The notes beneath the pieces are model-generated. The model saw only the letters and a program-made list of their open reading frames with translations, had not been told where the DNA came from and ran no database searches. From an uncultured Flavobacteriales bacterium (lineage in GTDB: Bacteria; Bacteroidota; Bacteroidia; Palsa-965), in assembly GCA_903873905.1 (NCBI GenBank), contig CAIQQJ010000131.1:22729-86728 (forward strand): DNA of 64,000 nucleotides. The letters run 5' to 3'. The position numbers and the translations under genes were made by a program. Position 1 is the stretch's first letter. Every line of letters begins with the position of its first letter. Below, piece by piece: positions 1,026-40,964 of the stretch.

Positions 1026-1029
1026 AGTT

Positions 1030-2175: not shown

Positions 2176-2358
2176 CTTTTGTCATGTTTTTTCCTGTACC
2201 AAAGTAACACTCAAAGACACTCTCTTCTTATGATCACCGTCATATTTCACATTGAAAAATTTAGAATTCCAGATTAATTTTTAATCGATAAAAAATCCAG
2301 CTTTTCATGGGAGATTTTTTGGAAAAATTCATAAAATAGGCTGATTTTTCGATTGGAA

Positions 2359-3105: not shown

Positions 3106-3160
3106 GACAATCAGGTTCCCTCAATTTTTGACAGCAAAAAAAATGGCAAATAAATAATTA

Positions 3161-4024: not shown

Positions 4025-4098
4025 AAATATTATATCTCCAATAGTAATTGAAGTCTATTGAAAAAACTATGAGGAAATGGAGTGCCTGGATTTTAAGT

Positions 4099-5517: not shown

Positions 5518-5536
5518 GTTGTTTACTTTTCAAATA

Positions 5537-6841: not shown

Positions 6842-6861
6842 TGTAAACTATTTTTTTTGGT

Positions 6862-8793: not shown

Positions 8794-8797
8794 AGCC

Positions 8798-12142: not shown

Positions 12143-12294
12143 AAAATACCATCCACTCCAATGTCAGCTAAGGTCGTTATATATGTTAGCGAGAGATATG
12201 ATATAAATCATGTTTGCTGCTCCTAAATATTGTGAAATTTGAGAAAAAGATACCTCTAAAATTTGAATTTTTGAAGCGGTTCGAAAAAAAATAA

Positions 12295-13539: not shown

Positions 13540-13766
13540 TTCGGATTTTTCATCAGCGCAAAAAATGCATTGGTTGTAATGCATGTGTGGAAGTAAATAA
13601 ATCAAGATGGAGAATATCACGTTTGGATGGGAAATCAACTTTGATTGAAGGAATAGAAAAAAAAGGAATTTACATGGCAACTGTTTTTGATGATGAATGG
13701 GAAGCCAATGAACTCGCAGCGAAAAATTGTCCAGTAAAAATCATCCGATTGGAAAAAATAGTATGA
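13536..13766 (+). CDS. small ferredoxin (single-cluster Fe-S protein)
   Basis: 76-aa ORF. CIGCNACVE ... NCP motif (CxxCxxC...CP). Start overlaps the U32 stop (ATGA). Stop overlaps the likely start of the downstream Mo enzyme. Confidence 0.6.
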   Translation: MIRIFHQRKKCIGCNACVEVNKSRWRISRLDGKSTLIEGIEKKGIYMATVFDDEWEANELAAKNCPVKIIRLEKIV

Positions 13767-22759: not shown

Positions 22760-22771
22760 TGATTTAAATCA
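22760..22771. promoter_or_regulatory. FNR/Crp-type box TGATTTAAATCA
   Basis: Same palindrome as at 20852 and 33222. Lies in the intergenic region between the narK-like gene and the FeS-subunit gene. Confidence 0.55.
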
Positions 22772-23000: not shown

Positions 23001-23090
23001 AAAAATGATTTACATCACTGAGTAAAATCATAATCCCGTCTGATTCGAGTCATAGTTTGAAAATAATAATGTAGGGAAATTTGGTCCGTT
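23001..23090 (+). promoter_or_regulatory. conserved about 90-nt promoter/leader element, copy A
   Basis: Roughly 75-80% identical to 29987-30076: ATGAT.TA.ATCACTGAG.A.AATCAT.ATC.CGTCTG...GAaTCATAGTTTGAAAAT.AT.AT..GT.GGAAATTTG.T.CGGTT. Confidence 0.6.
23006..23017. promoter_or_regulatory. FNR/Crp-type box TGATTTACATCA at the head of conserved leader element A
   Basis: TGAT-N4-ATCA, followed about 35 nt later by CATAGTTTG (Bacteroidota -7-like TAnnTTTG motif). 213 bp upstream of the FeS-subunit gene. Confidence 0.55.
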
Positions 23091-23229: not shown

Positions 23230-24204
23230 ATGGAAGATCAAAACAAAAACAATGAAGACAACAAAACTCCTGAATCGAATGAGTCAGGCAGACGCGACTT
23301 CCTGAAATTTGGAGTGCTTGCGGCTGGGCTAACTGTAGCAGGTGTTGGTCTTCAGAAAGTTTTTTCTGGCGAAAAGAATTCCGACGAAAAAGCTTCTGGT
23401 GAGAAAGTGAAAGTCCTCACCACAGATGGAAAACTCATTGAAGTATATGCTGCGGATGTCAAAAAAGCCGATGCATGTTGTGTTCCTTCAGCGGAAGCGC
23501 GTCAAGGAATACCAGGGAAGAAATTTGTAATGGTGATCGATTTATCACGTTGCAAAGACGCTTTGAAATGTCAAAAATCTTGTGAAAAACATCACCAACT
23601 TCCTGAACAGGATAAATGGTTGAAGGTTTTCAAAATGCAAGAATCAGAAGAAACAGCTCCTTACTGGATGCCAAAACCATGTTTCCATTGTGACCACCCA
23701 CCTTGTGTTAAAGTTTGTCCTGTTGATGCAACTTTTAAAAGAACAGATGGAATAGTTTTAGTTGACAATGAACGTTGCATCGGTTGCAGATTCTGCATGG
23801 CAGCTTGTCCATATTCTGCCCGTGTATTTAACTGGTCAGAACCTGTAACTCCAGCTAGACATGAAAATGACACCTATTCTCCAGAAACAAGCACCCCAAG
23901 AAAAAAAGGTACTGTTGAGAAATGTGACTTCTGTCCAGATGTAATTAGACAAGGTAAACTTCCACATTGCGTTACTGCTTGTCCAAATGGTGTTTATTAT
24001 TTCGGTGATCAAAATGAGGACACCGTTACCAATGGAGACACAACAGTTCGCTTAAGCCAATTGCTAAGAGACAAAGCTGGTTACAGATATTTGGAATCTC
24101 TTGGAACCGAACCTAGCGTTTATTATCTCCCTGCTGCCAATCGAATATTCCCATTCAAAGACAGGGAAATTAAAGATGAAAAGAAGGAAGAATCCAAAAG
24201 CTAA
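23230..24204 (+). CDS. Tat-exported 4x[4Fe-4S] ferredoxin-type subunit (NrfC/PsrB/NosG-like)
   Basis: 324-aa ORF. RRDFLKFG twin-arginine signal. Four Cys clusters (CFHCDHPPCVKVCP, CIGCRFCMAACPY, CDFC...CVTACP, plus one atypical first cluster). Confidence 0.8.
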   Translation: MEDQNKNNEDNKTPESNESGRRDFLKFGVLAAGLTVAGVGLQKVFSGEKNSDEKASGEKVKVLTTDGKLIEVYAADVKKADACCVPSAEARQGIPGKKFVMVIDLSRCKDALKCQKSCEKHHQLPEQDKWLKVFKMQESEETAPYWMPKPCFHCDHPPCVKVCPVDATFKRTDGIVLVDNERCIGCRFCMAACPYSARVFNWSEPVTPARHENDTYSPETSTPRKKGTVEKCDFCPDVIRQGKLPHCVTACPNGVYYFGDQNEDTVTNGDTTVRLSQLLRDKAGYRYLESLGTEPSVYYLPAANRIFPFKDREIKDEKKEESKS

Positions 24205-24259: not shown

Positions 24260-25639
24260 ATGAAAGACATAATAAAACCAAAAGATGACGCTGAAGCAAT
24301 ACAAATGTTGCATCAGTTTAACGAGGACTTGCTGCCAAAGAAATTTGGTAAGATTGGTGTGACTTGGACCATATTTCTTTGCCTTGTAATTGCAAATGGA
24401 CTTTTTTGTTATTACAAACAATTAAAATTTGGATTGAGTGTAACTGGTTTGGGAGATCAAGTTTCCTGGGGTATTTACATTTCCAATTTCGTTTTTTTCG
24501 TAGCGGTAAGTTTAGTTGGTTCCTTGATCACAGCTGTACTTTATTTGCTTAATGTAAATTGGCGATCACCATTAACGAGGATTGCAGAAGTAATTGCAGT
24601 GGCTTGTATCGTTTTCGCTGGCCTCATTATCATTGTTGATATGGGTCGTCCTGATCGAATTCTAAATATGTTTATTTATGGTAGAATTCAGTCGCCAATT
24701 GTTTGGGATGTAATAGTTGTAATGACTTATATGACAATAAGCGTTTTACTTCTTTATTTTCCTTTACTTCCTGGAATTGCTTTTTGCAGAGACCATCTCA
24801 AAAATATTCCTAAATGGCAAAAGTGGATGTATAAGTTTCTATCGTTTGGATGGAAATGGAATCCTGAACAATTCAAAATTGTAAAAAGGGCAATTACAAT
24901 TTTATCCGTTCTTATTATTCCTGTTGCGCTTAGTATTCACACCGTTACTTCCTGGTTGTTTGCTACAACATTCCGTCCGGGTTGGGATAGTACAAATTTT
25001 GGAGCCTACTTTGTTGCAGGTGCGTTTATGGTAGGAGCAGGTGCGGTAATTGCAGCCATGTATGTCCTCATAAAATTCTACCCACGTTACGATCAGTATA
25101 TCACAGATAAACATTTTGATCGTATGGGGAAACTTCTTGTACTTCTATCCTTGGTCTATATGTATTTTACCGTTAATGAATACATGATTCCCGGTTATAA
25201 AATGAAGGGTGAAGAAGCTGCCCATCTTACAGAATTATTTGTTGGAAAATATGCGCTAATGTTTTGGTCAGTTCAAATTTTCGGAATGATCATTCCTATT
25301 ATTCTTCTTATGTTCAAAAAATTCAGACGCCCTTTCCCAATGTTTGTCATTGCGATTTGTGTAATTGTTGGAGCGTGGTTTAAACGATTCCTTATTGTTA
25401 TTCCAACATTGCTTCACCCTTTCCTACCAATGCAGGAAATATCTGAATCAGCGAAATCTTATTCTCCAACCTATCCAGAGTGGTCCATCACCTTTGCTTC
25501 ATTGGCTGGCGCATTATTGATAATCACTGTCTTTATCCGCTATTTCCCTATTATTTCAATTTGGGAAGTTGCTGAAGAAAGAGGAATTGAACACGATGTT
25601 ATTTATAAACACTTAAACGAATTAAACGAAAAAGAATGA
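24260..25639 (+). CDS. NrfD/PsrC-family polytopic membrane quinol-interacting subunit
   Basis: 459-aa ORF with about 10 TM helices and an NrfD-like profile. Directly downstream of the FeS subunit. Confidence 0.8.
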   Translation: MKDIIKPKDDAEAIQMLHQFNEDLLPKKFGKIGVTWTIFLCLVIANGLFCYYKQLKFGLSVTGLGDQVSWGIYISNFVFFVAVSLVGSLITAVLYLLNVNWRSPLTRIAEVIAVACIVFAGLIIIVDMGRPDRILNMFIYGRIQSPIVWDVIVVMTYMTISVLLLYFPLLPGIAFCRDHLKNIPKWQKWMYKFLSFGWKWNPEQFKIVKRAITILSVLIIPVALSIHTVTSWLFATTFRPGWDSTNFGAYFVAGAFMVGAGAVIAAMYVLIKFYPRYDQYITDKHFDRMGKLLVLLSLVYMYFTVNEYMIPGYKMKGEEAAHLTELFVGKYALMFWSVQIFGMIIPIILLMFKKFRRPFPMFVIAICVIVGAWFKRFLIVIPTLLHPFLPMQEISESAKSYSPTYPEWSITFASLAGALLIITVFIRYFPIISIWEVAEERGIEHDVIYKHLNELNEKE

Positions 25640-26580
25640 AAAACTATCTAACATTTCAGATGCGGATATCTTCCCTTTTTTATTCGGCATTATCTTTGTT
25701 ATTCATTGGTGTATTCGTGCTAATGAGTAATAATGTAATGGCTCAAGACAAAAAGGATACGACCAAAATGTCTATTTCCATGAACGTGAGTTATAAAATT
25801 TCAGATGGAATAAAACACGTGAAAGTTCAAGCTACGCGAAAAGAAAATAAAAAAAATGTTTCCGTAGATAATGCAACTTCCCCTGTGTCTTTATACCTGA
25901 ATGAAGTAAAAGCTACAGATCCTTCAACTGGAGACGGACTTATCAGCAAACTTTTTCTTAATGAAGAAGGAGAAGTAACCTTTGATCTCCCTGCTAATTT
26001 TAATTCGCTCACATCTGGGTTACATGAATACACTTTCATTGCCCGTATGGAAGCAGATCCAATTTATCAAGAAGCAGAAGAACAAATTACCATTGCAGAT
26101 GCAAAAATCACTGTTGAATATTCCGGCAAGGATTCCATTAAAACGGCTACTGCTACACTAATGGAATGGAAAGACAGTGCGTACGTGCCTGTTCGTGATG
26201 CTGAATTGAAACTTTTCATTAAAAGAACATTCAGTTTATATCCTATTGGCGAAGAAGGAATTACTTCTGATTCACTCGGGCAAATAACATCGGAACTTCC
26301 TTTGGATATTCCTGGTGAGGCTGATGGCACAATAATTATTGTCGGCAGTGTGATCGATCATGAAACCTACGGAACTGTTGAAACAACAAATAAAGTGAAA
26401 TGGGCTGTTCTTCCAAAAGTCAATGCTGACATGGGTCGTACGCTTTGGTCTACAGGAAAAAATGCTCCTGTTCCATTAATTATTGCTTCTTGCACGATTA
26501 TTGCAATCATTTGGGGAACGATTATTTATCTAATTTTACAGCTGTTTAAAATCAGAAAAATCGGAAAACAAAAAGTGTAG
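25636..26580 (+). CDS. hypothetical periplasmic protein with N-terminal signal/anchor and C-terminal TM helix
   Basis: 314-aa ORF. Start overlaps the NrfD stop (ATGA), so translationally coupled. No cofactor motif recognised. Confidence 0.5.
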   Translation: MKNYLTFQMRISSLFYSALSLLFIGVFVLMSNNVMAQDKKDTTKMSISMNVSYKISDGIKHVKVQATRKENKKNVSVDNATSPVSLYLNEVKATDPSTGDGLISKLFLNEEGEVTFDLPANFNSLTSGLHEYTFIARMEADPIYQEAEEQITIADAKITVEYSGKDSIKTATATLMEWKDSAYVPVRDAELKLFIKRTFSLYPIGEEGITSDSLGQITSELPLDIPGEADGTIIIVGSVIDHETYGTVETTNKVKWAVLPKVNADMGRTLWSTGKNAPVPLIIASCTIIAIIWGTIIYLILQLFKIRKIGKQKV

Positions 26581-26617: not shown

Positions 26618-27058
26618 ATGAAATCAAATCAAAAATCCGCAAATTTCGCCGCAATTACATCAGTTATTATTCTGTTTGCATTTGTTGGAATGTTAAGCAT
26701 GTCATTCGTTACCATTTCTACTACTGGTGATAAAAAACCATGGGTAGTTCCTGATAAAGATAAGGCAGTGAAAAACCCTGTTGCTTCCGATGCAACATCT
26801 ATTGCAGCTGGAAAAACTTTGTACACAAAACTTTGCAAATCATGTCATGGTGCTACTGGAAAAGGTGATGGTCCAAAATCAAAAGAATTGGAAACACCAA
26901 CAGGAAGCTTTCTGGATGCAACTTTTACTGCACAAACAGATGGAGAAGTTTTCTTCAAAGTAAGAAAAGGCAGAGATGATATGCCTGGTTTCTCTAAAGA
27001 AACAGAAGCTAATGATGTTTGGAATATCATTAACTATGTTCGCTCATTGAAAAAATAA
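26618..27058 (+). CDS. membrane-anchored class I c-type cytochrome (c6/c553-like)
   Basis: 146-aa ORF. N-terminal TM. CKSCHG heme motif. Distal Met region (DDMPGF). Confidence 0.75.
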   Translation: MKSNQKSANFAAITSVIILFAFVGMLSMSFVTISTTGDKKPWVVPDKDKAVKNPVASDATSIAAGKTLYTKLCKSCHGATGKGDGPKSKELETPTGSFLDATFTAQTDGEVFFKVRKGRDDMPGFSKETEANDVWNIINYVRSLKK

Positions 27059-27130: not shown

Positions 27131-28051
27131 ATGAAACTATCATTCTTTAATAGCACATTTAATGCAGCAAAAACATTTTTTGTTTTTGCTGCATTTGTGG
27201 CTACAACCGGTGTCGTACGTGCACAGGACGATTCAACCGCAACAGGCCCAGAACCTGTAACAAGAACTTTTCGCGGTCCTCAATTAATCAATATGCCTAC
27301 GAATGAAATCGTAGATGGTCTGACATTCGGAATTCAACACCGTTTCGGTCAGGTAATTGATAAGGACATTGCGTATGAGTTTTTGGGAATGGATCTTACA
27401 GCAAACATGCGTTTTTCACTTGGCTACCCTATCATTAAGGAAAGATTGATGGTCGAGCTAGGAAGAACCAAATTTGGAAAGAATATGGATCTAGAGGTAA
27501 AATGGCTTGCATTGAGACAGACAACAAAAAATGAAATGCCTATTTCCCTTACGATTTATGTGGATCCATCTTTATCGATGACAAGATTCCCAAAAGTTCC
27601 GAATTATGCATATTTTGGTGATAGCACCACAGTATTTAAATATACTGCTGCTTCTCGAATGGCATATAATTCTCAAATCATTATTTCAAGGAAGTTCAGC
27701 AAGAAATTCTCCTGCGAATTAGCTCCAACTTTTATTTACAGAAATTTGGTAGAGTCTTCAACTATTGATCATTATACAATGGCTTTGCAAGCTGGTGCAC
27801 GTTACAAGTTTTCAAGAGCTGGTTCTATTATGGTAGAATATGGTCATGCATTCAACAACAGAGACACCGCGACCGCCACTAAAACGGTTGATCCTCTTTC
27901 AATAGGAGTTGAATTCGGAACTGTAGCGCACGTATTTCAGATTGTAATGAGCTCTTCCAACAATCTTCTTGCTAGAGACATTTATACAACGAATGGTGTT
28001 GCTTATACCAAAGGACTTTTTGTAGGCTTCAATTTGAAACGTTTCTTTTAA
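27131..28051 (+). CDS. hypothetical outer-membrane beta-barrel protein
   Basis: 306-aa ORF. Signal peptide ending VRAQDD. Alternating amphipathic strands. C-terminal ...LKRFF, typical of OMP barrels. Confidence 0.45.
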   Translation: MKLSFFNSTFNAAKTFFVFAAFVATTGVVRAQDDSTATGPEPVTRTFRGPQLINMPTNEIVDGLTFGIQHRFGQVIDKDIAYEFLGMDLTANMRFSLGYPIIKERLMVELGRTKFGKNMDLEVKWLALRQTTKNEMPISLTIYVDPSLSMTRFPKVPNYAYFGDSTTVFKYTAASRMAYNSQIIISRKFSKKFSCELAPTFIYRNLVESSTIDHYTMALQAGARYKFSRAGSIMVEYGHAFNNRDTATATKTVDPLSIGVEFGTVAHVFQIVMSSSNNLLARDIYTTNGVAYTKGLFVGFNLKRFF

Positions 28052-28114: not shown

Positions 28115-28576
28115 ATGAAAATGAATCTCACTATGAAAAAATTAACTTTTAGCCCTATAAAGCTCATTTCTGGAATGACCGTGATCCTTGGATTATTGTT
28201 TGTTAGCTCCTGTAAAAAAGATGTTGGGCCAATTATCATACCTCCTGCAAATGCTCCTCCAGTGAGTTTTGCCTCTGAAATTCAACCAATCTTTACCACA
28301 AATTGTGCTGTAGGTGGTTGTCACGATGGTTCTGCATATGACCCAAATCTATCAGCTGGAGTAGCTTATGTTAATACTGTGAATGTTCCTGCTCCTTCTT
28401 ACGCTCCTTATTTTTTGATAAGACCAAGCAAGGCTGACAGCTCCGTTATTTATCATAAAATGTTGAACGATGATGCAGGTACTTATGGTGGCAAAATGCC
28501 TCCTGCTGGTGTTTTACCAGCAACTCAACTTGATCTATTGAAAACCTGGATCAACCAAGGTGCATTGAATAATTAA
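28115..28576 (+). CDS. lipoprotein with a Cys-X4-Cys-His motif (putative cytochrome-c-like / metal-binding domain)
   Basis: 153-aa ORF. Lipobox LFVSSC. IQPIFTTNCAVGGCHDG resembles planctomycete-cytochrome-C-type domains but with CX4CH spacing. Confidence 0.5.
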   Translation: MKMNLTMKKLTFSPIKLISGMTVILGLLFVSSCKKDVGPIIIPPANAPPVSFASEIQPIFTTNCAVGGCHDGSAYDPNLSAGVAYVNTVNVPAPSYAPYFLIRPSKADSSVIYHKMLNDDAGTYGGKMPPAGVLPATQLDLLKTWINQGALNN

Positions 28577-28584
28577 TTGCCTTC

Positions 28585-28626
28585 ACTACAACATTGATTT
28601 TTTTAATTAAAAATCAATGTTGTAGT
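28585..28626 (+). terminator. long perfect hairpin downstream of the CX4CH lipoprotein gene
   Basis: ACTACAACATTGATTTTT-TTAATT-AAAAATCAATGTTGTAGT: 18-bp perfect arms and no clear U-tract. Could be a terminator or an RNA-processing / regulatory structure. Confidence 0.5.
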
Positions 28627-28713
28627 ATAACACAACTATTTTTGTACCGTTCAGTGATAAATCAAAGTTTGTTTCAAAATTGAAAAAATAAATAAAAACT
28701 AAAAACTAAAAAC

Positions 28714-29490
28714 ATGAGAAAAATTACACTCTTTGCTATTTCGAGTATTATTTTGGTTGTGGCTATGTCCAGTAGCGCTGGAAAAGCTGGTAAGACAGGT
28801 TCTCCAGGTGAAAGCACCTGTATGGGATGCCATGGTGACTTTCCAATAAATACAGGTGGAGGAACTATTGCGATTACCTCTAATATCCCTGGCTCTTATA
28901 TTGCTGGAACCACCTATACAGTCAGCGTTACAGTAAGCCAAACTGCAATGCCTTTGTTTGGTTTCGATTTCGAGGCACTCAATTCGGCAAATGCCAATGC
29001 TGGTACCCTTGCTGCTGGTAGCGACTCGCATATTATGATATCAGGCGGAAAAAATAACATGGTCCATTTGACAGATGGTGGTCTAACCACCGGTACTCAT
29101 ACTTTCACCTTCAACTGGACAGCTCCAAGTGCAGGTGCTGGAACAGTTACATTCTATGCTTCCGGAATTTGTGCAGATAATAGTGGAGATGAAACGGGTG
29201 ACTATGTGCATACTACATCAGTGGCTATTCCTGAAAACCCATTGAGTGTTGCTCAAAATTCTTCTGAGCCAACGCTTAATGTTTACCCAACTGTTTCTAA
29301 CGGAACTTTCACAATTCAGAATAATGTAAATTATGATTTGTCAATTTACAACGTTACTGGAGAAGAAGTTTTCGCAAAAACTGTTGATGCTAATCTTGAA
29401 ACAGTGAATCTGAATGTACCAACAGGAATGTATTTTGTGTACATCAAATCAGAAAACAAAACAACATTGAAGAAAATCATTGTTCAGTAA
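28714..29490 (+). CDS. T9SS-secreted surface protein with N-terminal CxxCH-containing domain and Por_Secre_tail C-terminal sorting domain
   Basis: 258-aa ORF. Signal peptide. CMGCHG motif. C-terminal roughly 75 aa (LNVYPTVSNGTFTI...MYFVYIKSENKTTLKKIIVQ) match the T9SS CTD pattern. Confidence 0.75.
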   Translation: MRKITLFAISSIILVVAMSSSAGKAGKTGSPGESTCMGCHGDFPINTGGGTIAITSNIPGSYIAGTTYTVSVTVSQTAMPLFGFDFEALNSANANAGTLAAGSDSHIMISGGKNNMVHLTDGGLTTGTHTFTFNWTAPSAGAGTVTFYASGICADNSGDETGDYVHTTSVAIPENPLSVAQNSSEPTLNVYPTVSNGTFTIQNNVNYDLSIYNVTGEEVFAKTVDANLETVNLNVPTGMYFVYIKSENKTTLKKIIVQ

Positions 29491-29626
29491 TTCTAAATCT
29501 TCGGTAGGATTAATAAACTATTAAATTATTAAGCAGCCGAGTGCAAAATAAATTCATTAGCATTTAGCGCAAAAAGCTTCTTGCCAAATGAAAACTTAAG
29601 AAGTGCTGATTTAAAAATCAAAAAAA

Positions 29627-29658
29627 AGATTCCGGGGTTTCCGGAATCTTTTTTTTTG
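29627..29658. terminator. rho-independent terminator
   Basis: AGATTCCGG-GGTTT-CCGGAATCT stem plus TTTTTTTTT, with an upstream A-run (bidirectional potential). Confidence 0.7.
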
Positions 29659-29986
29659 TAAGTTTTATCATTAAAAAAATGCCCAAAACAATCGTGGTTC
29701 ATTGGCAAATCGGAGTTGGAAAACGAAAAATGAAAGTCGTTTTAATTTTCGGTTCTTGACAATCAAAATCTAAAAAATCTCTATGTTCCCTTTTTGATTT
29801 TTTTAGCCATTTCCACAAAGAACGTTTAATCAATAAAACACTGGTTTTCCAAGGCGGTTATTCTTCTTGTATAAATCCTATTGCTGTGGAATGCAATTCT
29901 GCAGAACCAAATTCCCCTTGTGGATTTACTCCGCAAAAAAATCATCTGAAAAAGTTCACCCATATTGGGCTCCATTGACCTTTTTG

Positions 29987-30076
29987 CAGTATGATCTATA
30001 TCACTGAGAACAATCATGATCTCGTCTGTACTGAATCATAGTTTGAAAATGATTATCAGTGGAAATTTGTTTCGGT
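29987..30076 (+). promoter_or_regulatory. conserved about 90-nt promoter/leader element, copy B
   Basis: Paralogue of 23001-23090. Directly upstream of the 940-aa T9SS/SprB-repeat protein gene. Confidence 0.6.
29992..30003. promoter_or_regulatory. FNR/Crp-type box TGATCTATATCA at the head of conserved leader element B
   Basis: TGAT-N4-ATCA, followed about 36 nt later by CATAGTTTG. 134 bp upstream of the 940-aa T9SS protein gene. Confidence 0.55.
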
Positions 30077-30136
30077 TATTAATTCAAAAGTCAATCAAAA
30101 TAAATCAAAAATCAATCTGTTTAAACTCTACCAATT

Positions 30137-32959
30137 ATGAAAAAATTAATCGTTGCATCTACAGCTTTTGCAGCTCTTCTGCTGATAGCTTTCGGCTCAA
30201 TGACTCAACAAGCTGATGCGAGAAGTAAAAAAACACCTCCCTCTGGCTATTCTGGCGGTCCTGGAGATGGCCCTGGTGGCAGAACATGTTGGACCGGCTG
30301 TCACAACAACTACAGTCAAGCCTTCAACAAACCTGGTTGGATCACTTCTGATATTCCCGTTACAGGATATGTACCAGGAGCAACTTACAACATCACCATT
30401 CACAGCAATTCTAAAGGATACAGACACGGTTTTGAGGCAAGTTGCCAAACCAATGCTGGTGTATTCCAAGGAACATTAATTGGCAACGATTCCACTCAGG
30501 TAATTGTTGACCCTACTGTTACTAGCAAACAATGGATTGCACAAATGGATTCCATGCGCGCTTTGTCTATGGTACCTCCAGTTTCAACCAGTCTTGGTTA
30601 TCATGGTAATGGAAATGCTTCAGTTACTTTCAACACCAAAGCATGGACATTTAAGTGGGTTGCTCCATCAGCAGGAACAGGCGATGTTACTTTCTACATG
30701 GCGACTGTAGCAACCAACAACAATAATGACGACCATGCAGCTCCTTACCAACAAACATCTTGGGCTGGTGATTCCGTGTTTAGTTCAACTCTTCCTCTCT
30801 TTGAAAATACAACATTAAGCATCGGAAGTGTTACAAAACCATGTAATGGAAATAACGGTTCTGCAACTGTAAATGCTACTTATGGAACTGCACCATATAC
30901 CTATTCTTGGAATTCATCACCTGTGCAAACAACACAAACAGCAACCAACCTTGGAGCTGGAACTTATACAGTTGTTGTAACAGACGCATTGTCATCCGTT
31001 AAAACATTGACTTTTACATTACAAAACAAGATAAAAGCAATTATCAACGACCAAAACATTCCAGTATGTAATAATGGAACAATCACCCATACAGTAGTTC
31101 CAATTGGAACAGGTCCTTTCACTTATTTGTGGGCACCTTCTGGTGGAACAGCTGCTATTTCAACAGCTTTGGCTGCTGGTACATATTCAGTAACAGTAAC
31201 AGATGCGGCTACTTGCGCAACTACATTAACAGTTACCACAACAAACAACCCTCCAATGCACATTTGGTTTTTCGATTGGCAGGACAGTGCTGTAACACGC
31301 AATGGTGGTGCAAATGGTTATGCTAAAATACAACGTGAGTTTGCTCCAAGTGGATCAGTTTACACTTATGCATGGAATCCAGCAATTGGTATTCAAGGAC
31401 AATTCCAAGATAGTTTGACTGCACAAACCTACACTTGCACAGTAACAAACACCCATTCTGTTTGTCCAACACAGGTTGTTGCAGCTACAGTTACAATTAC
31501 ACAACCAACTGTACTTACTGCATCTGTTACTGCTTCAAACAATGGATGCAATAGCGCGAATAGCGGTTCTGCAACAGTCACTGCTGCTGGAGGAACTCCA
31601 CCTTACACTTATCTATGGAGTAATGGTCAAACTTCAGCTACAGCAACAGGTTTAGCTCCTGGAACGTATACTTGTACCATTACACACAGAGGTGTTTATG
31701 CAACATCACAAGATGTACCTGCACTACAACGTGCGGTTTCTGCTGTCGGTTCTTGGTCTATTACTAAAACTGTAACTATTTCTGCTCTTTCTGCAAGTAT
31801 TGCTCCTCCAACAAATCCAACATGTTTTGGTGGAACAGGAAGCGCTACTGTAACTCCAGTAGGCGGAACAGCACCATACACTTACTTGTGGAGTCCTTCA
31901 GGCGGAACAGCTGCAACAGCAACTGGTCTAGCTGCAGGTTCTTACACTTGTACAATCACTGATGCAAATGGATGTGTTGTTTCTGCAAACAGAACTTTGG
32001 TTCAACCAGGAGCACTTCTTGGATCTGCATCAACAGTTAGTCCTTTATGCAATGGAGACAACAACGGATCTGCAACAGTTGTTGCAGGTGGCGGAACTCC
32101 AACATACACTTACCTATGGGCACCTTCAGGAGCAACAACCGCAACTTCAAGCGGACTTGTAGCAGGTTCTTACACTTGCACAATCACTGATGCTTACGGA
32201 TGTACAACAGCTGTAAATACAACTGTGGCTGAACCAGGAGTTCTTGTTGGATCAGGATCAACTGTTAGTCCTTTATGTAATGGTGGAAATGGAACTGCAA
32301 CAGTTTATGCTGGTGGCGGAAATCCTTTGTACACTTACCTATGGGCACCTTCAGGCGGAACAGCTGCAACAACAACTGCAGTTCCTGCAGCAACATACAC
32401 TTGCACAATCACTGATGCAAACGGCTGTACAACTACTGTAAGCAATACAATCAATGAGCCTGCAGCTTTGACAACATTAATGGGAACTACAAGTGAGTAT
32501 TTCGCAGCTAATGGAACTGCAACAGCATATCCTTCAGGTGGAACAGCTCCATATTCATTCTTATGGGCTCCAACAGGTGGAACTGCACAAGTTGCATCAG
32601 GTCTTGTTGCCGGAACATACTCTGTAACAGTTACAGACGTAAATGGTTGCACAGTTACTAATTCAGTAGTTGTTACTTCTGTTGTTGGTGTATCTTCAAT
32701 TGATGCAGACAACTCTATCAATGTATTCCCAAATCCAAACTCTGGTGAATTTGATATGGTTTTGAATGCTACTGAAAATACCAATTACACAATTGTACTT
32801 ACAAACGTACTTGGACAAGTTGTTTACACTGAAACGCTTGAAAACTTCAGCGGAAACTACACCAAACACTTTGATGTAAATTCAAATGGTAAAGGTGTTT
32901 ATCTGATGAGCGTACGCAGTGCAAATCATCAAGTTGTTCGCAAGATTGTTGTTTACTAG
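30137..32959 (+). CDS. large T9SS-secreted adhesin-like protein: N-terminal CX3CH domain, about 8 SprB-type repeats, and Por_Secre_tail CTD
   Basis: 940-aa ORF. Signal peptide. CWTGCH motif. The N-domain is homologous to that of the 28714..29490 product (shared ...W(T/V)APSAG(A/T)G(T/D)VTFY...). Repeats GGT.PYTYLW.PSGGT...GL.AG.YTCTITDANGC. CTD ...VFPNPNSGEF...KIVVY. Confidence 0.85.
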   Translation: MKKLIVASTAFAALLLIAFGSMTQQADARSKKTPPSGYSGGPGDGPGGRTCWTGCHNNYSQAFNKPGWITSDIPVTGYVPGATYNITIHSNSKGYRHGFEASCQTNAGVFQGTLIGNDSTQVIVDPTVTSKQWIAQMDSMRALSMVPPVSTSLGYHGNGNASVTFNTKAWTFKWVAPSAGTGDVTFYMATVATNNNNDDHAAPYQQTSWAGDSVFSSTLPLFENTTLSIGSVTKPCNGNNGSATVNATYGTAPYTYSWNSSPVQTTQTATNLGAGTYTVVVTDALSSVKTLTFTLQNKIKAIINDQNIPVCNNGTITHTVVPIGTGPFTYLWAPSGGTAAISTALAAGTYSVTVTDAATCATTLTVTTTNNPPMHIWFFDWQDSAVTRNGGANGYAKIQREFAPSGSVYTYAWNPAIGIQGQFQDSLTAQTYTCTVTNTHSVCPTQVVAATVTITQPTVLTASVTASNNGCNSANSGSATVTAAGGTPPYTYLWSNGQTSATATGLAPGTYTCTITHRGVYATSQDVPALQRAVSAVGSWSITKTVTISALSASIAPPTNPTCFGGTGSATVTPVGGTAPYTYLWSPSGGTAATATGLAAGSYTCTITDANGCVVSANRTLVQPGALLGSASTVSPLCNGDNNGSATVVAGGGTPTYTYLWAPSGATTATSSGLVAGSYTCTITDAYGCTTAVNTTVAEPGVLVGSGSTVSPLCNGGNGTATVYAGGGNPLYTYLWAPSGGTAATTTAVPAATYTCTITDANGCTTTVSNTINEPAALTTLMGTTSEYFAANGTATAYPSGGTAPYSFLWAPTGGTAQVASGLVAGTYSVTVTDVNGCTVTNSVVVTSVVGVSSIDADNSINVFPNPNSGEFDMVLNATENTNYTIVLTNVLGQVVYTETLENFSGNYTKHFDVNSNGKGVYLMSVRSANHQVVRKIVVY
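30842..32702 (+). repeat. in-frame array of about 8 SprB-type repeats (roughly 80-90 aa each) inside the 940-aa T9SS protein gene
   Basis: Recurring NG.NGSATV.A.GGT.PYTYLW.PSGGT.A...GL.AG.YTCTITDANGC at the protein level, with matching nucleotide periodicity. Confidence 0.75.
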
Positions 32960-33012
32960 AATCATTTTCTGAATACAGAAAAATGAATTTAGATTGAGTT
33001 AGTCAAATTTTA

Positions 33013-33053
33013 AAAGAGGGATGGTTTCAAAATGAAGCCATCCCTCTTTTTTT
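33013..33053 (+). terminator. rho-independent terminator of the 940-aa T9SS protein gene
   Basis: AAGAGGGATGG-loop-CCATCCCTCTT followed by TTTTTTTG. Confidence 0.8.
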
Positions 33054-33667: not shown

Positions 33668-34618
33668 ATGAAAACTTTAGATATTCTTGACGTTACAATT
33701 CTTGAACCGAAGCTCAAACACCCAACCATTTTCAAAAAATTCGACACACTTGCAGCAGGTGAATTTTTTGTCATTCATAATGACCATGATCCTAAGCCAC
33801 TCTATTATCAATTGCTGGCAGAGCGTGGAAATATTTTCAATTGGGAATATCTTGAAGCAGGTCCAGAATGGTGGAATGTGAGAATTGGAAAATTGGAGGC
33901 TGGTGCAATAGAACCAACCATCGGTGATTTGGTTACAAAAGATTTTCGCAAGGCGCAAGTCTTCAAAAAATTCGGTCTTGACTTTTGTTGTGGCGGTAAA
34001 AAAACATTGGGAAAAGCATGTGCTGAAAAAGGAATTGACATTGTCCAACTTGAAAAGGAATTGAATGAAGTTGAAAACACAGCTAAATCCTCATCGCAAG
34101 ATTACGCTTCTTGGGATCTTGATTTTCTAGTCGATTACATAGTGAATACACATCACAAATATGTTGTCCGTTCTATGCCTGCGATTGTAGAATACACACA
34201 AAAAGTTGCGCGTGTTCATGGCATGAACCATCCTGAAGCAGTGGTAATCGCAAATGAATTTTTAAAAGTGCAAAGTGATTTAGACAGTCATATGGCGAAG
34301 GAAGAAAACATTCTTTTCCCTTATATCAAACAATTGGTAGAAACACAAAAAAGCAAATCGACATTAGGTGGGTCTGCTTTCGGGTCTATTCAAAGTCCGA
34401 TCAACATGATGGAAATGGAACATGAATTAGTTGGAGGAATCATGGCACACATTCGTGAACTCACAAATAATTTCACTCCACCTGCTGATGCCTGCACCAC
34501 TTACAGATTATCCTATGCATCGCTAAATGAATTTGAAGAAGATCTTCATCAACACATTCATTTGGAAAACAATATTCTTTTCCCAAAAGCAATAAAATTG
34601 GAACAGGAATTACGCTAA
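33668..34618 (+). CDS. iron-sulfur cluster repair di-iron protein (RIC/ScdA/YtfE family) with N-terminal DUF2249-like domain
   Basis: 316-aa ORF. ScdA_N motif FGLDFCCGGKKTLGKAC. Hemerythrin-like His/Glu repeats (HHKYV..., HELVGG..., HQHIHLENNILFP). Confidence 0.75.
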   Translation: MKTLDILDVTILEPKLKHPTIFKKFDTLAAGEFFVIHNDHDPKPLYYQLLAERGNIFNWEYLEAGPEWWNVRIGKLEAGAIEPTIGDLVTKDFRKAQVFKKFGLDFCCGGKKTLGKACAEKGIDIVQLEKELNEVENTAKSSSQDYASWDLDFLVDYIVNTHHKYVVRSMPAIVEYTQKVARVHGMNHPEAVVIANEFLKVQSDLDSHMAKEENILFPYIKQLVETQKSKSTLGGSAFGSIQSPINMMEMEHELVGGIMAHIRELTNNFTPPADACTTYRLSYASLNEFEEDLHQHIHLENNILFPKAIKLEQELR

Positions 34619-34624
34619 GCATAA

Positions 34625-35431
34625 ATGAAAATTTCCGCGTCGACAAAAATATCGGCACTGCTAAAATTCAATCCAGCTTCCCTGGAAGCAATTGTTTCCA
34701 TTAACAAACATTTCGAAAAGCTGAGAAATCCTGTTTTACGAAAAGTTCTTGCGTCGCGCGTCACAATTGCTGAGGCTGCAAAAATTGGAAAATGCAGTAT
34801 TGATATTTTTTTCGATAAACTAAAAGCGATTGGATTTGAAATAGAAAACAATCGTGATAAAATAAATATGAAAATGAATCCTATTCCTGAATTTGTAAAT
34901 ACATCCACTGAATCCAACACAACAGAACTTGATGTTCGAGAGGAAATTCGTAATGGACGCGATCCTTTTCAGATCATCATGAAAGCCATTGATGAGCTTC
35001 CGGAAAATTTTACGTTGTTGCTTATCAATTCCTTCGAGCCTGTTCCGCTGATCAAGATTTTAAACAACAAAGGTTTTTTGCATTTTGTAAAATACCAGGA
35101 GGATGGAGCTGTTTATACTTACCTGAAAAAGCAGGACGCAAATTCTCCTATGAAAATTGAAATTCCCGTAAATGATTCTTCGTCCGAATTCATTTCATTG
35201 TTCAAACAGTATTGCGGTAAACTAAAAACGATTGACGTAAGGAATCTGGAAATGCCATTACCCATGACAACGATTCTTGGAGAACTTGAAAGCCTGCCAA
35301 ATGACATGGCGCTGTTTGTTCATCACAAAAAAGTTCCTCAGTTTTTATTTCCAGAATTACAGGAAAGAAATTTCAAATGGTCAATAGAAGAAAAAACTGC
35401 GGATGAAGTTGATTTATTAATTTACAAATAA
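34625..35431 (+). CDS. DUF1858/DUF2249-type domain protein (NO-response-associated, function unknown)
   Basis: 268-aa ORF. N-terminal ISALLKFNPASLEAIVSINKHFEKLRNPVLRKVL resembles DUF1858. Central VREEIRNGRDPFQIIMKAIDELP resembles DUF2249. Confidence 0.5.
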   Translation: MKISASTKISALLKFNPASLEAIVSINKHFEKLRNPVLRKVLASRVTIAEAAKIGKCSIDIFFDKLKAIGFEIENNRDKINMKMNPIPEFVNTSTESNTTELDVREEIRNGRDPFQIIMKAIDELPENFTLLLINSFEPVPLIKILNNKGFLHFVKYQEDGAVYTYLKKQDANSPMKIEIPVNDSSSEFISLFKQYCGKLKTIDVRNLEMPLPMTTILGELESLPNDMALFVHHKKVPQFLFPELQERNFKWSIEEKTADEVDLLIYK

Positions 35432-36720
35432 TGCAAGGCAAGGGAACAACGAAAGGGCCATCACCGAGTGTTGTTCTCCCCCACTTTATTTTCGGGGCGC
35501 TTTCATTTTTCATTGTGACACTTCTGCTTGTACTTTCACCAGAGATTTTTTCCGGGCATTATTTCCAGCCAAAACTTTTAACAATCACACACATCAGCAT
35601 TTTGGGTTGGGGCGTAATGATCATTTTCGGTTCCATCTATCAGCTGTTGCCTGTGTTGTTGGAAACACCATTGTATAGTGAAGCACTGGCGAAAATCACA
35701 TTCCTCGCGCTAGCAACAGGAATACTATTGATTGCCTATTCCTTTTGGAATTTTTATGTGGGAATTCAACTTGAAATTGCTTCTGGATTTCTCTTGACAT
35801 CCTTCATACTTTTTTCGATCAACATTTTCACTACTGTTCGCAGATCAAAAAAGAATTCCAACGAAAGTGATTTTATTTCCACTGCGGTGATTTGGCTTTT
35901 ATTTACGGGAAGTCTTGGTTTATTAATGGCTTGTAATTTTACACATCCTTTTCTCACCAAATCTCATTTGTTGTTTTTGAAAATCCACGCGCACATGGGA
36001 ATTGCGGGTTGGTTTATTTTATTGATCATGGGAGTGGCTTCAAAATTAATTCCCATGTTTTTACTTTCGCAAAACCTAAATCAGAAAAAACTTACTGCTG
36101 CTTATTATTTTGTCAATGCAGGCCTGATTGGATTTATCGTTGACCAATTCTTTTTTGAAGGAAGTATTATTTCACCGCTATTTGCACTACTAATCATTAG
36201 TGGTGTTTTATGTTTCATTTCATTCACCTTCGAAGCTTACAAAAAAAGAGTTCGAAAGATTCTGGACATTGGATTGAAACACTCCTTCACAGCGATTCTT
36301 GTTTTATTCCTACCCCTTATTCTGGGTGGCATTCTAAGTTTCATTCATTCACCTGACAGCCCATTTCTATTAAGAATTTATCTGATTTACGGAACCTCCA
36401 TTTTTCTTGGATTTATTTCTTCCTTGATTTTGGGACAATCCTTTAAGACGCTTCCCTTTATTGTGTGGTTGCACAAACATGGAAATAATGCGGGAGGTGG
36501 AAAAGCTCCTTTACCGAAAGATTTTTATTCTGAAAAATTAGCACAAGCCCAATTCGTAATTTACCTTGTGGCACTTACAACGCTACTTACCGGAATATTA
36601 TTTGCAATTCCTACAGTGATAAGAATAGGTTCAATACTTTTGCTTGTAACTGCAATGCTCTATAATCTCAATATCTTTAAGATTATTTTCATAAACGCCA
36701 AATCATCAAAATTAATTTAG
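35431..36720 (+). CDS. nnrS: polytopic membrane protein, NnrS-like (NO-responsive heme-copper membrane protein family)
   Basis: 429-aa ORF with about 12 TM helices and conserved His in TMs. Sits among NO-stress genes (RIC, DUF1858, norCB), the usual context for NnrS. The family call rests mainly on topology and context. Confidence 0.45.
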   Translation: MQGKGTTKGPSPSVVLPHFIFGALSFFIVTLLLVLSPEIFSGHYFQPKLLTITHISILGWGVMIIFGSIYQLLPVLLETPLYSEALAKITFLALATGILLIAYSFWNFYVGIQLEIASGFLLTSFILFSINIFTTVRRSKKNSNESDFISTAVIWLLFTGSLGLLMACNFTHPFLTKSHLLFLKIHAHMGIAGWFILLIMGVASKLIPMFLLSQNLNQKKLTAAYYFVNAGLIGFIVDQFFFEGSIISPLFALLIISGVLCFISFTFEAYKKRVRKILDIGLKHSFTAILVLFLPLILGGILSFIHSPDSPFLLRIYLIYGTSIFLGFISSLILGQSFKTLPFIVWLHKHGNNAGGGKAPLPKDFYSEKLAQAQFVIYLVALTTLLTGILFAIPTVIRIGSILLLVTAMLYNLNIFKIIFINAKSSKLI

Positions 36721-37041
36721 ATGGGAATTTTCAACGAAGAGAATGAAATAGAATCAAAAACTTACGATGCTTTGAAAAAAGTTATTGATCCTGAAATTGG
36801 AATCAACATTGTTGACCTCGGACTCGTTTATAAAATCGAATACAAAGTTGAAAGTGGAATAAGCGTTGAGATGACACTTTCCACTCCTGGTTGTCCAATG
36901 GGTGATGCCATAATAGGAAATGCAGAAAGTGAAATAAAAAATGTTTTTCCTGATGAAAAAATAACGGTTGAACTTGTTTGGGAACCTGCTTGGAAAACTG
37001 ACTTTGTATCTGAGGCAGGAAAGAAAGCTTTGGGAATGTAA
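36721..37041 (+). CDS. DUF59/MIP18-family Fe-S cluster assembly protein (SufT-like)
   Basis: 106-aa ORF. ...IVDLGLVY... and conserved Cys in TPGCPMG, typical of DUF59. Confidence 0.7.
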   Translation: MGIFNEENEIESKTYDALKKVIDPEIGINIVDLGLVYKIEYKVESGISVEMTLSTPGCPMGDAIIGNAESEIKNVFPDEKITVELVWEPAWKTDFVSEAGKKALGM

Positions 37042-39742: not shown

Positions 39743-40450
39743 ATGGAGAGAAACAATTTACCAAAACTGGGTTGTTCCAATTGTAAAATCCGGAATATTT
39801 CTCTCTTCGCAAACGGATTGTCAGACTCTCATTTTGAATTATTTGCTGAAAAGAAAGAATTGGTTTTCAAAAAAGGAGAAAAACTAATTTCTGATGGAGA
39901 TGAATTCAAAGGCTTTTTTTGCATCCAAAGCGGAACAATAAAAATTTACAAGCCAATCAATAACAAGAATGATTTTATTCTCTGGTTTGCCAAACCTGGT
40001 GAGTCCATTGGTATAGATTCTTTTTTCAATAATGAAAATTATCAATACTCCGCTTCGGCAACAGGTATTGTGAAGGCCTGTTTTTTCAGTGCCCCAAAAA
40101 TAAATGAGCTGATGCAAAATGGATCAGTTACATACATGCGGCTGATGGAATATTTTTGTGAGCGAATTGACTTCATAGAAAAAAGAATTACAAGCATTGC
40201 CCAAAAAAAAACAAAGTCACATTTGGCAGAACTTCTTATTGCCCTACGAAATGATGAAACGGCGGATGAAAAAGAAACAAATATTGATTACAGCATAAAG
40301 GATTTAGCAAACATTATCGGTACAACCCAAAACTATTTATACAAAATTTCCTCTGAACTCATAAAGGAAAAAATCATTTCATTCGAAAGGAAGAAGCTGA
40401 AAATTCTGGATTTGGAAAAATTGTCGATTCTTGCAAAAGGAGCAAAATAA
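39743..40450 (+). CDS. FNR-like Crp/Fnr-family regulator with N-terminal Cys pair
   Basis: 235-aa ORF. N-terminal GCSNCKIRNISLF. cNMP-like domain. HTH (IKDLANIIGTTQNYLYKIS). Confidence 0.7.
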   Translation: MERNNLPKLGCSNCKIRNISLFANGLSDSHFELFAEKKELVFKKGEKLISDGDEFKGFFCIQSGTIKIYKPINNKNDFILWFAKPGESIGIDSFFNNENYQYSASATGIVKACFFSAPKINELMQNGSVTYMRLMEYFCERIDFIEKRITSIAQKKTKSHLAELLIALRNDETADEKETNIDYSIKDLANIIGTTQNYLYKISSELIKEKIISFERKKLKILDLEKLSILAKGAK

Positions 40451-40541
40451 TACTCCTATTTTTGTAATAGACGAAACTGTCACTTTTTATGAAATCATTT
40501 ATTCCATATCTCGTTTTTTAAACCCGACAAATAGGATTTTT

Positions 40542-40964
40542 ATGAGTTTAAAAACGAAGCGTCTTATTTTTGGAATTCTTTTTTCCTTTTTCTTCCTGTA
40601 CACAATTGCAGTAGATACAATCGGAACATCCAAAGACGATGGTGAGCGTTGGCTTACTGAAAAAGCAAAAAAAGGAAAACTGGTTTTTCAGGAATACAAT
40701 TGCACTGCATGTCACCAGATTTATGGACTTGGCGGCTATATGGGGCCTGATCTGACCAACGTAATTTCTACGCCTGGAAAAGGACCGATTTACGCGAAAG
40801 CATTCTTGCAAGCGGGCTCACAACGAATGCCTAATTTCCAATTGTCAGAAGAAAAAATGGAAGAATTGATAGAATTCCTAACTTACATTGACAAAACTGG
40901 CATTTCACCAGTAAAAAAATTCAAGACTAATTTTGACGGAACGATAAGTGAAGCAACAAAATGA
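40542..40964 (+). CDS. norC: nitric oxide reductase subunit C (membrane-anchored mono-heme cytochrome c)
   Basis: About 140 aa from MSLKTKRL (the ORF-track start at 40431 would overlap the upstream regulator). N-terminal TM. CTACH heme motif. Stop overlaps the norB start. Confidence 0.75.
   Translation: MSLKTKRLIFGILFSFFFLYTIAVDTIGTSKDDGERWLTEKAKKGKLVFQEYNCTACHQIYGLGGYMGPDLTNVISTPGKGPIYAKAFLQAGSQRMPNFQLSEEKMEELIEFLTYIDKTGISPVKKFKTNFDGTISEATK

Follow-up and report, generated by a model that had tools for sequence, protein, structure and literature searches.

In Mtr-type systems, decahaem cytochromes are threaded through a 26-strand barrel, and Cyc2 pairs a short cytochrome domain that has a PXFAR[Q/K][T/Y] motif with a porin of 16 predicted strands (PMC8406198). 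The haems of FoxE have His/Met ligation (PMC10654088). We describe here a locus of an uncultured Flavobacteriales bacterium, contained in a stretch of 64,000 nucleotides (referred to as the window), in which two proteins called here P2 and P3 suggest a new kind of cell-surface cytochrome. The Bacteroidota are abundant in soils, sediments and waters and, to our knowledge, are not known for surface redox chemistry.

Organisation and regulation of the locus

The original prediction placed three genes encoding exported Cys-Xn-Cys-His proteins (P1, P2 and P3) next to a periplasmic electron-transfer module. The three open reading frames and their motifs are all present in the sequence, together with the following features.

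22760-22771 (no strand): Crp/Fnr-type box TGATTTAAATCA, 5' of the NrfC-like operon
23006-23017 (no strand): second Crp/Fnr-type box, TGATTTACATCA, located 213 bp 5' of the NrfC-like start
23230-24204 (+): NrfC/DsrO-like 4Fe-4S protein with the twin-arginine signal RRDFLK (Fer4_11, 4e-21; DsrO, 196.5 bits)
24260-25639 (+): NrfD/DsrP-like integral membrane subunit, quinone/quinol-interacting (PF03916, 1.5e-34)
25636-26580 (+): 314-aa membrane protein without family match, constant companion of the NrfC/NrfD/cytochrome c genes
26618-27058 (+): class-I monohaem cytochrome c (CKSCH), counterpart of the cytochrome domain that other genomes carry fused to DUF5777
27131-28051 (+): DUF5777 outer-membrane beta-barrel, 12 predicted strands, invariant His70 and His267
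28115-28576 (+): P1, 153 aa, very probably a c-type cytochrome lipoprotein related to PSCyt1/FoxE, with its CX4CH motif at nt 28304-28324
28714-29490 (+): P2, 258 aa; a signal peptide is followed by the choice-of-anchor V / Reeler-like domain (nt 28714-29229, with the CX2CH motif at 28819-28833) and by a T9SS C-terminal domain (CTD, nt 29281-29484)
29620-29656 (no strand): strong bidirectional intrinsic terminator, 3' of P2
29992-30003 (no strand): Crp/Fnr-type box TGATCTATATCA, 5' of P3 at 134-145 bp from its start codon
30137-32959 (+): P3, 940 aa; a signal peptide is followed by the choice-of-anchor V / Reeler-like N-domain, which contains an insertion (nt 30137-30799, with the CX3CH motif at 30287-30304), by about 8 SprB repeats (approximately nt 30830-32700) and by a T9SS CTD (nt 32723-32953)
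33012-33050 (+): intrinsic terminator, 3' of P3

No terminator was called from NrfC through P2, the P1-P2 gap included, and a strong one follows P2. P2 probably closes an operon under a Crp/Fnr-type regulator, which would comprise an NrfC/NrfD-type quinone-pool module, the class-I cytochrome c, the DUF5777 barrel, P1 and P2. Regarding the FNR boxes that had been proposed for this region, the core TGAT-N4-ATCA occurs 12 times in the window, and 8 of these sites lie in the approximately 12% of non-coding DNA; a sharper pattern was derived post hoc from these sites. Boxes of this kind precede both the NrfC operon and P3. By contrast, the full FNR consensus TTGAT-N4-ATCAA, allowing at most one mismatch, was not enriched in the window (13 sites versus 11.7 expected); the intergenic enrichment was seen for the core alone. 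The box found in the window also precedes the homologous operon in three other loci (L001-L003) and the P2-type gene in two more (L009 and L033).

Gene neighbourhoods were compared in 39 species-level loci, which were gathered with 4 query sequences and are biased to close relatives carrying GKAGKTGSP. The only conserved neighbours of P2-type genes were P1-type cytochrome lipoproteins (14 of the 39 loci) and DUF5777 (8 of the 39), the P1-type gene usually abutting the P2-type gene, often at a distance of a few bp. In about 25 of the loci, the 8 kb around the gene contain no cytochrome neighbour. The set of P2-type, P1-type and DUF5777 genes adjoins the NrfC, NrfD and cytochrome c genes in L001-L003. 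Adjacent separate genes encode the cytochrome c and DUF5777 in the window; at least 12 homologues of DUF5777 carry a fused class-I cytochrome c, reading ...YKSLCASCHG..., and there too the P1-type lipoprotein gene follows. The island surrounding the locus contains RIC/ScdA, hemerythrins, DUF2249/DUF1858, norC-like and norB-like genes and three Crp/Fnr paralogues. Taken together, the conserved neighbourhood, the operon structure and the Crp/Fnr-type boxes bear out the predicted link to a periplasmic electron-transfer module.

The probable cytochrome P1 and the N-terminal domain of P2 and P3

P1 carries the lipobox LFVSSC and the motif NCAVGGCH, a CX4CH. The P1 sequence alone had no match in Pfam, and PF07635 is present in some of its homologues. 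The P1 family profile matched FoxE (E=4.6e-9), in an alignment that pairs the CXXCH motifs and also the axial-Met (M-P) motifs, and the haem domain of the hydrazine synthase alpha subunit (E=5e-6); its similarity to PSCyt1/FoxE-type cytochromes thus extends over the haem motif as well as the axial Met. The family conserves IQPIF...C..CH and the M-P motif, and the candidate axial ligand of P1 is probably Met128 in GKMPP. On this evidence, P1 can very probably be counted among the genuine c-type cytochromes. Given the cytochrome fold of the P1-type proteins, the alignment of their motif to the CXXCH of FoxE and their lax Cys-to-Cys spacing (CX2 to CX6), the maturation machinery of this lineage must accept such sites.

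The three proteins had been proposed to form one paralogous family. P2 and P3 are indeed homologous, since their N-domains align by BLASTP (2e-9, 25% identity over about 225 columns) and the block TF.W.APSAG.G.VTFY, already noticed as common to both, lies inside this alignment. By contrast, pairwise E-values of P1 with P2 and P3 were above 1, and P1 falls into another, all-alpha family of cytochromes c. The three proteins are therefore members of two families, not one.

The N-domain of P2 and P3 belongs to a family that is already catalogued yet uncharacterised: P2 scored 100.6 bits against NCBIfam NF041895, "choice-of-anchor V" (cut-off 42), and all of the 19 aligned members, including the P3 N-domain (E<=0.01), matched this profile. 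No function, cofactor or structure was found for it in searchable papers. A related catalogued family is NF041894 (MXAN_6652), which is MYXO-CTERM-anchored; a search of the literature on MXAN_6652, on DUF5777 and on bacterial Reeler domains with haem returned nothing relevant.

The P2 motif is CMGCH (CX2CH) and that of P3 is CWTGCH (CX3CH). The domain follows the signal peptide directly in all representatives, and the Cys, Cys and His of the motif (C36, C39 and H40) are invariant in these Sec-exported proteins (176 of 176 P2-type representatives). The family comprises 8768 cluster representatives at E<=1e-3, and the invariance of the motif is more than would arise by chance. It sits in a conserved N-terminal extension, G-K-A-G-x-T-G-S-P-G-E-x-x-C-Xn-C-H. 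The variable spacing first seen in this locus is a family-wide trait, with CX2CH in 115 representatives, CX4CH in 47, CX3CH in 14 and CX5CH in 1. CX3CH and CX4CH are unusual, as had been pointed out, but they are known haem-c sites, for example in tetrahaem cytochromes c3, so that spacing alone is unremarkable. Because the Cys-His pair is fixed while the spacing varies from 2 to 5, a pattern expected of haem-c sites, and considering also the fold and the genomic context, we infer that the N-domain most likely carries haem c. The candidate sixth ligand is His118 (93% conserved among the 176 representatives, Gln in 7%); that it falls short of full conservation counts against this reading.

Of the c-type haem sites considered for all three proteins, that of P1 is supported by the profile matches above; the N-domain of P2 and P3 is recognised by no cytochrome HMM. 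Searches with their N-domain found no known cytochrome c family or fold (Pfam Cytochrome_CBB3 only at E=0.077), and no cytochrome of the PDB matched beyond the motif. In the main rival explanation, the N-domain would be a head without haem, serving adhesion or ligand binding, in which the Cys-Xn-Cys forms a small disulfide loop or binds a metal (Cu, Zn or Fe) together with the His and a further residue (His118, Glu33 or Asp163). T9SS display would then serve attachment to surfaces or polymers, and the cytochrome neighbours would reflect co-regulation rather than a shared chain. In line with this, the domain matches no cytochrome profile, most of the loci have no cytochrome neighbour, and P3, like about a quarter of its relatives (45 of 176), is a long multi-domain surface protein with SprB or other repeats, a stalk of the kind seen in fibrillar adhesins. 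However, a His placed invariantly straight after the second Cys, with loops of 2 to 5 residues, is the signature of haem c; disulfide loops do not typically show such a pattern and metal sites usually keep a fixed geometry. Furthermore, the tightest conserved neighbour is a c-type cytochrome, and the Crp/Fnr-type box recurs across independent lineages. We consider this explanation possible, if somewhat doubtful.

Profile and fold comparison showed that the core of the N-domain is a Reeler-like beta-sandwich, one of the folds guessed at the outset. The P2 sequence itself misses the threshold of Pfam Reeler (PF02014), and the bacterial C-Xn-C-H extension falls outside the alignment with Reeler (PF02014; F-spondin Reelin-N, PDB 3COO). 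A Foldseek search of the PDB with a two-domain model of P2 was uninformative, returning only generic two-Ig-domain matches (antibody Fabs, RbmA). The sole cytochrome resemblance of the N-domain is at the level of the fold, to cytochrome f.

Predicted surface export and a possible redox chain

P2 and P3 each combine an N-terminal signal peptide with a T9SS type-A CTD that scored above threshold, in PF18962 (9e-10 and 2e-12, respectively) and in TIGR04183 (42.6 and 49.6 bits, cut-off 23), in agreement with their original designation as T9SS cargo. A C-terminal T9SS sorting domain was found in 159 of the 176 representatives (90%). No T9SS component was detected among the scanned genes of the 64-kb window, and a literature search on T9SS with cytochrome c cargo, multihaem or extracellular electron transfer found nothing relevant. 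The SprB repeats of P3 reached 150.8 bits against PF13573 (threshold 28) in 6 scored stretches; counting by eye from (Y/F)(T/S)(Y/F)xW gave 8 repeats, in keeping with the first estimate of about 8, and a regular expression gave 5.

After Sec-dependent passage through the inner membrane and folding in the periplasm, P2 and P3 would be exported by the T9SS to the cell surface, the N-terminal extension most likely carrying one covalent haem c on the Reeler-like core. P3 is a stalked form of the P2 head, mounted on SprB repeats and provided with its own Crp/Fnr-type box. The surface-exposed monohaem protein would stand at the end or at the start of an outer-membrane-associated redox chain, depending on the direction of electron flow, and might exchange electrons with a redox partner outside the cell, Fe(II)/Fe(III) or another. 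A role in extracellular electron transfer is speculative. It is strained by the single haem of each protein and the mere 12 strands of the barrel, which by themselves cannot bridge the outer membrane, and by the long stalk of P3, which is not a redox structure.

Another explanation accepts the haem c and dispenses with a chain across the outer membrane. P2 and P3 would then be sensors or scavengers of NO, O2 or sulfide at the surface or in the medium, peroxidase-like detoxifiers, or proteins of iron or haem acquisition. Such roles fit the NO/anaerobiosis island described above and the single haem per protein; Gln in place of His118 could mean an open or exchangeable sixth position, and the stalked forms are hard to square with electron conduction. 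However, the conserved partners are electron carriers and an outer-membrane barrel, not enzymes acting on NO or peroxide, and the P2-type/P1-type/DUF5777 trio is also found away from NO-related genes (for example in L004 and L021). We regard these roles as quite improbable.

That P2 and P3 are T9SS-displayed monohaem cytochromes within an outer-membrane redox module is the likeliest of these readings and has, in our estimation, about an even chance of being correct. The wider proposal is that cytochrome c, DUF5777, a FoxE-like lipoprotein and a T9SS-delivered monohaem cytochrome of the Reeler fold make up an unrecognised, non-multihaem redox system of the Bacteroidota outer membrane, serving Fe(II) oxidation or extracellular electron transfer at low oxygen. 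The class-I cytochrome c would be either free or fused to the barrel, the invariant histidine pair of DUF5777 might hold a bridging cofactor, and in stalked forms such as P3 the head would act as a tethered shuttle. This proposal is unlikely as a whole and is offered tentatively.

Comparison with described systems

Should the domain bind no haem, it would be an uncharacterised adhesin head co-regulated with an anaerobic respiratory island. If haem is bound, the family would represent a large group (thousands of clusters) of cell-surface cytochromes of Bacteroidota, and folded holo-cytochromes would join the range of T9SS cargo. The P2-type, P1-type and DUF5777 genes would then be markers for a possible iron or extracellular redox metabolism missed by multihaem-based screens. 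FRRS1, a eukaryotic ferric-chelate reductase, has a Reeler domain next to haem domains, and haem binding by P2 and P3 would hint at why the two are paired.

The locus resembles MtrCAB in that a periplasmic cytochrome, an outer-membrane barrel and a surface cytochrome are encoded together. With a single motif per protein and a 12-strand barrel, the DUF5777 module is not an MtrCAB-type complex, and its surface component would be exported by the T9SS, whereas that of Mtr is exported as a T2SS lipoprotein. The DUF5777 homologues in which an N-terminal monohaem cytochrome c is fused to an outer-membrane barrel recall Cyc2; they have, however, a full class-I domain without PXFAR[Q/K][T/Y], and 12 predicted strands, and were not retained as Cyc2. 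FoxE is a dihaem Fe(II) oxidoreductase of Rhodobacter ferrooxidans, which the tandem two-domain fusions found among some P1-type neighbours resemble. By contrast, P1 itself is predicted to be a monohaem lipoprotein with CX4CH and has no foxY or foxZ partner; Fe(II) oxidase activity would be a candidate function.

The likeness of P2 and P3 to cytochrome f (PDB 4OGQ chain C, 2JXM chain B) is formal, a CXXCH immediately after the signal peptide on a beta-sandwich. No sequence relationship was detected, as hhalign gave a probability of 2.6% over 12 columns covering the motif only. Unlike cytochrome f, P2 and P3 have neither a small domain nor a C-terminal membrane helix and end in a T9SS CTD. If the proposed haem attachment is correct, they would be the first c-type cytochrome cargo of the T9SS and the second class of beta-sandwich cytochrome c after cytochrome f.

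Two families with a Cys-Xn-Cys-His motif

The three open reading frames are present in the window as the original prediction had them:

28115-28576: P1, 153 aa, lipobox LFVSSC, motif NCAVGGCH
28714-29490: P2, 258 aa, motif CMGCH
30137-32959: P3, 940 aa, motif CWTGCH

P2 and P3 have a homologous N-terminal domain (BLASTP 2e-9) that includes the previously noticed block TF.W.APSAG.G.VTFY. Each has a C-terminal type-A T9SS sorting domain scoring above curated thresholds, in agreement with the proposed export, and solved T9SS C-terminal domains (CTDs) are matched by the P2-family profile too. P3 also carries SprB repeats (PF13573, 150.8 bits), eight when counted by the (Y/F)(T/S)(Y/F)xW motif. All three proteins had been assigned to one paralogous family; pairwise comparison of P1 with P2 and with P3 revealed no relationship (E above 1), so this single three-member family is wrong. 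Judged from their sequences, P1 and P2/P3 are two families that have Cys-Xn-Cys-His in common by coincidence.

Judged from its homologues, P1 is very probably an ordinary cytochrome of the c type and belongs to an uncommon sub-type. The homologues are small proteins, some with Pfam PSCyt1 (PF07635), and share two invariant motifs, IQPIF...C..CH and the C-terminal W-I-x-Q-G-A-x-N-N. With the haem motif and also the M-P axial-Met motif in register, the P1-family profile matched FoxE, the dihaem Fe(II) oxidoreductase (PDB 5MAB; E=4.6e-9), and hydrazine synthase alpha in its C-terminal haem domain (E=5e-6). Haem ligation in FoxE is His/Met (PMC10654088). A lipobox is found in every P1-type protein of the related loci, and motif spacing in these proteins runs from CX2CH to CX6CH (e.g. 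CGAGNGNCH). Some are tandem two-domain fusions, a dihaem arrangement like that of FoxE, and PSCyt1/FoxE-like small lipoprotein cytochromes often occur as tandem genes or fused dihaem proteins (spacing and tandems observed in loci L004, L007, L009, L012-L015, L017, L018, L021, L023, L024, L037, L039, L042 and L046). It should be noted that an acidic residue nearly always stands at +3 after the lipid-modified Cys of P1-type lipoproteins, a possible weak signal for export to the surface.

The N-terminal domain of P2 and P3

P2 scored 100.6 bits against NCBIfam NF041895 "choice-of-anchor V" (cut-off 42). This model was matched by 19/19 aligned family members, P3 among them, and Pfam Reeler by 8 of the 19. 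A profile search covering 1.84 billion cluster representatives returned 8768 members at E<=1e-3, of which 1274 reach E<=1e-30; the domain always occupies residues ~1-185 of proteins of 180-1608 aa. Among 176 representatives, C36, C39, H40, G97, W135 and D163 are 100% conserved, followed by Y68 (99%), Y62 (97%), E33 (96%) and H118 (93%), the latter replaced by Gln in most of the remainder. A T9SS CTD ends 159 of these 176 proteins, and 131 of the 176 are short P2-like forms; long members carry a single Cys-Xn-Cys-His motif only. The spacing count used a somewhat larger set (178 family sequences, of which one shows no motif in its first 90 residues) and gave CX2CH in 115, CX4CH in 47, CX3CH in 14 and CX5CH in 1.

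The AF2 model of P2 has a pLDDT of 77, with the sandwich core mostly >85. The Reeler alignment spans this core alone (profile positions 69-164), and the motif-carrying N-terminal extension is, on these alignments, a bacterial addition to it. Residues 1-49 of the P2-family profile were not significantly similar to PDB 9yuq chain N (E=0.15); the weak resemblance is between the extension (…GKTGSPGEsTCtsCH) and the first haem site (…SGNVNGSGSNTDETCVFCH) of this solved 'putative multiheme cytochrome c'.

Gene neighbourhood, barrel and regulation

The genes run in the order NrfC/DsrO-like FeS protein (TAT signal), NrfD/DsrP-like membrane subunit, 314-aa membrane protein, class-I cytochrome c, DUF5777, P1 and P2, with these further features:

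27131-28051 (+): DUF5777, predicted outer-membrane barrel
28586-28625: perfect 17-bp AT-rich inverted repeat (ctacaacattgattttt / aaaaatcaatgttgtag) between P1 and P2
29620-29656: strong terminator after P2 and before P3
33012-33050: P3's own terminator

No terminator was called from the NrfC-like gene to P2 ahead of the one at 29620-29656; the inverted repeat, which no T-run follows, was not called as one. Independent metagenomic relatives (P0007, 49% identity) have the gene order Crp/Fnr regulator, P1-type, DUF5777, P2-type, NrfC, NrfD, 315-aa protein and cytochrome c, and in another lineage a P2-type gene occurs with DUF5777 and a pair of P1-type genes, NrfCD being absent. In HMM searches of 39 species-representative Bacteroidota loci, the P1-type gene abuts the P2-type gene in 14, with DUF5777 as well in 8, and all-against-all neighbour clustering of the same loci gave no other widely conserved partner. 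Three related loci, L001 (15541-20828), L002 and L003, contain a second copy of the module of NrfC, NrfD, a ~290-aa protein and cytochrome c, with its own Crp/Fnr-type box. Next comes a protein of 486 aa that has an EB_dh (DOMON-like haem-b) domain, which suggests a general role for the module in feeding various haem proteins of the periplasm or the surface.

DUF5777 is predicted to form a 12-strand barrel (pLDDT 86), nearest to FapF, KdgM, NanC, COG4313 channels and autotransporter barrels. Two histidines are invariant, H70 in HRF and H267 in GHVFQ, and there are several invariant basic residues besides. In at least 12 homologues (P0211-P0223), a signal peptide and a class-I cytochrome c are fused to the N-terminal side of DUF5777, and one of these fusion genes again has a P1-type lipoprotein gene after it. 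In the window, where cytochrome c and DUF5777 are neighbouring genes, the same fusion is present in split form.

Allowing one mismatch, no enrichment of the full FNR consensus was seen in the window. The core TGAT-N4-ATCA occurs at 12 sites, 8 of them within the ~12% that is intergenic:

12199: upstream of a U32 peptidase gene
20816 and 20853: upstream of an MFS/cytochrome c divergent pair
22760 and 23006: upstream of the NrfC-like operon
29992: upstream of P3
33223: upstream of RIC/ScdA
39672: upstream of a Crp/Fnr gene

A sharper pattern, derived post hoc from the same sites, gave 10 matches against 0.18 expected. The core box also lies upstream of the homologous operon in L001-L003 and of P2-type genes in two further loci, L009 and L033. 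These boxes probably define a regulon of the U32 peptidase, the MFS and divergent cytochrome c genes, the NrfCD operon, P3, RIC/ScdA and one of three Crp/Fnr paralogues. Besides all three Crp/Fnr paralogues, the window encodes norC-like and norB-like proteins, RIC, hemerythrins and DUF2249/DUF1858 proteins, and the surroundings of P2/P3 look like a low-oxygen or NO-responsive island. The NO/low-oxygen genes at 33668-37041 and 40431-42292 comprise a RIC/ScdA-DUF2249 fusion, a DUF1858-DUF2249 protein, a protein of 429 aa whose sole match, to COX1, is weak (2e-7), and an FeS-assembly DUF59 protein, after which come a norC-like cytochrome c and a norB-like COX1-family protein. A 2-hydroxyacyl-CoA dehydratase cluster (two HGD-D subunits and BcrAD/BadFG-type activators) adjoins a xanthine-dehydrogenase-like molybdoenzyme with XdhC and MobA (186-8025 and 8188-17496); both point to an anaerobic, fermentative host.

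Proposed function and comparison with known systems

We propose that the P2/P3 head would be a monohaem c-type cytochrome on a Reeler-like sandwich, matured in the periplasm and exported in the folded state by the T9SS, a system that moves folded cargo. The partners of P2/P3 in an outer-membrane redox module would be P1, DUF5777 and the class-I cytochrome, and NrfCD-type proteins would link this module to the quinone pool. This reading is favoured because C-Xn-CH is invariant while n varies, because the P1 family, bona fide cytochromes encoded in the same genomes, has equally lax spacing, because the P2-type neighbourhood is exclusively cytochrome/DUF5777, because cytochrome-DUF5777 fusions exist and because Crp/Fnr-type control is shared. 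Its weak points are that similarity to cytochrome f is only marginally above that to generic sandwiches, that many loci are without the partners, that single-haem proteins and a barrel of 12 strands cannot bridge a membrane by themselves and that stalked forms look like adhesins. The main rival, a metal-binding or disulfide-stabilised adhesin head, appears rather unlikely. Haem binding by the head is somewhat probable; the full module with P1, DUF5777 and the class-I cytochrome stands at about even chances, and the odds of a true trans-membrane electron conduit are lower again. The complete reading, with a cofactor-bridged barrel and a tethered shuttle, is improbable.

CX3CH and CX4CH sites occur in other known cytochromes, and the spacing by itself is therefore not novel. 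The literature searched yielded no description of T9SS-exported c-type cytochromes or of a haem-binding bacterial Reeler domain, and no paper describing DUF5777. The defining features of the cytochrome f, Cyc2 and Mtr families were each looked for and found to be absent, which places the P2/P3 domain outside these families. It is alike in design to cytochrome f, with no sequence relationship beyond the motif, and the P2/P3 gene set resembles Cyc2/Mtr in gene logic. The fusion of an N-terminal cytochrome c to the predicted DUF5777 barrel is likewise reminiscent of Cyc2, in an apparently undescribed family. The P2/P3 domain itself, a Reeler-like member of NF041895, represents a large, uncharacterised surface domain family, probably haem-binding, in a conserved redox gene set.
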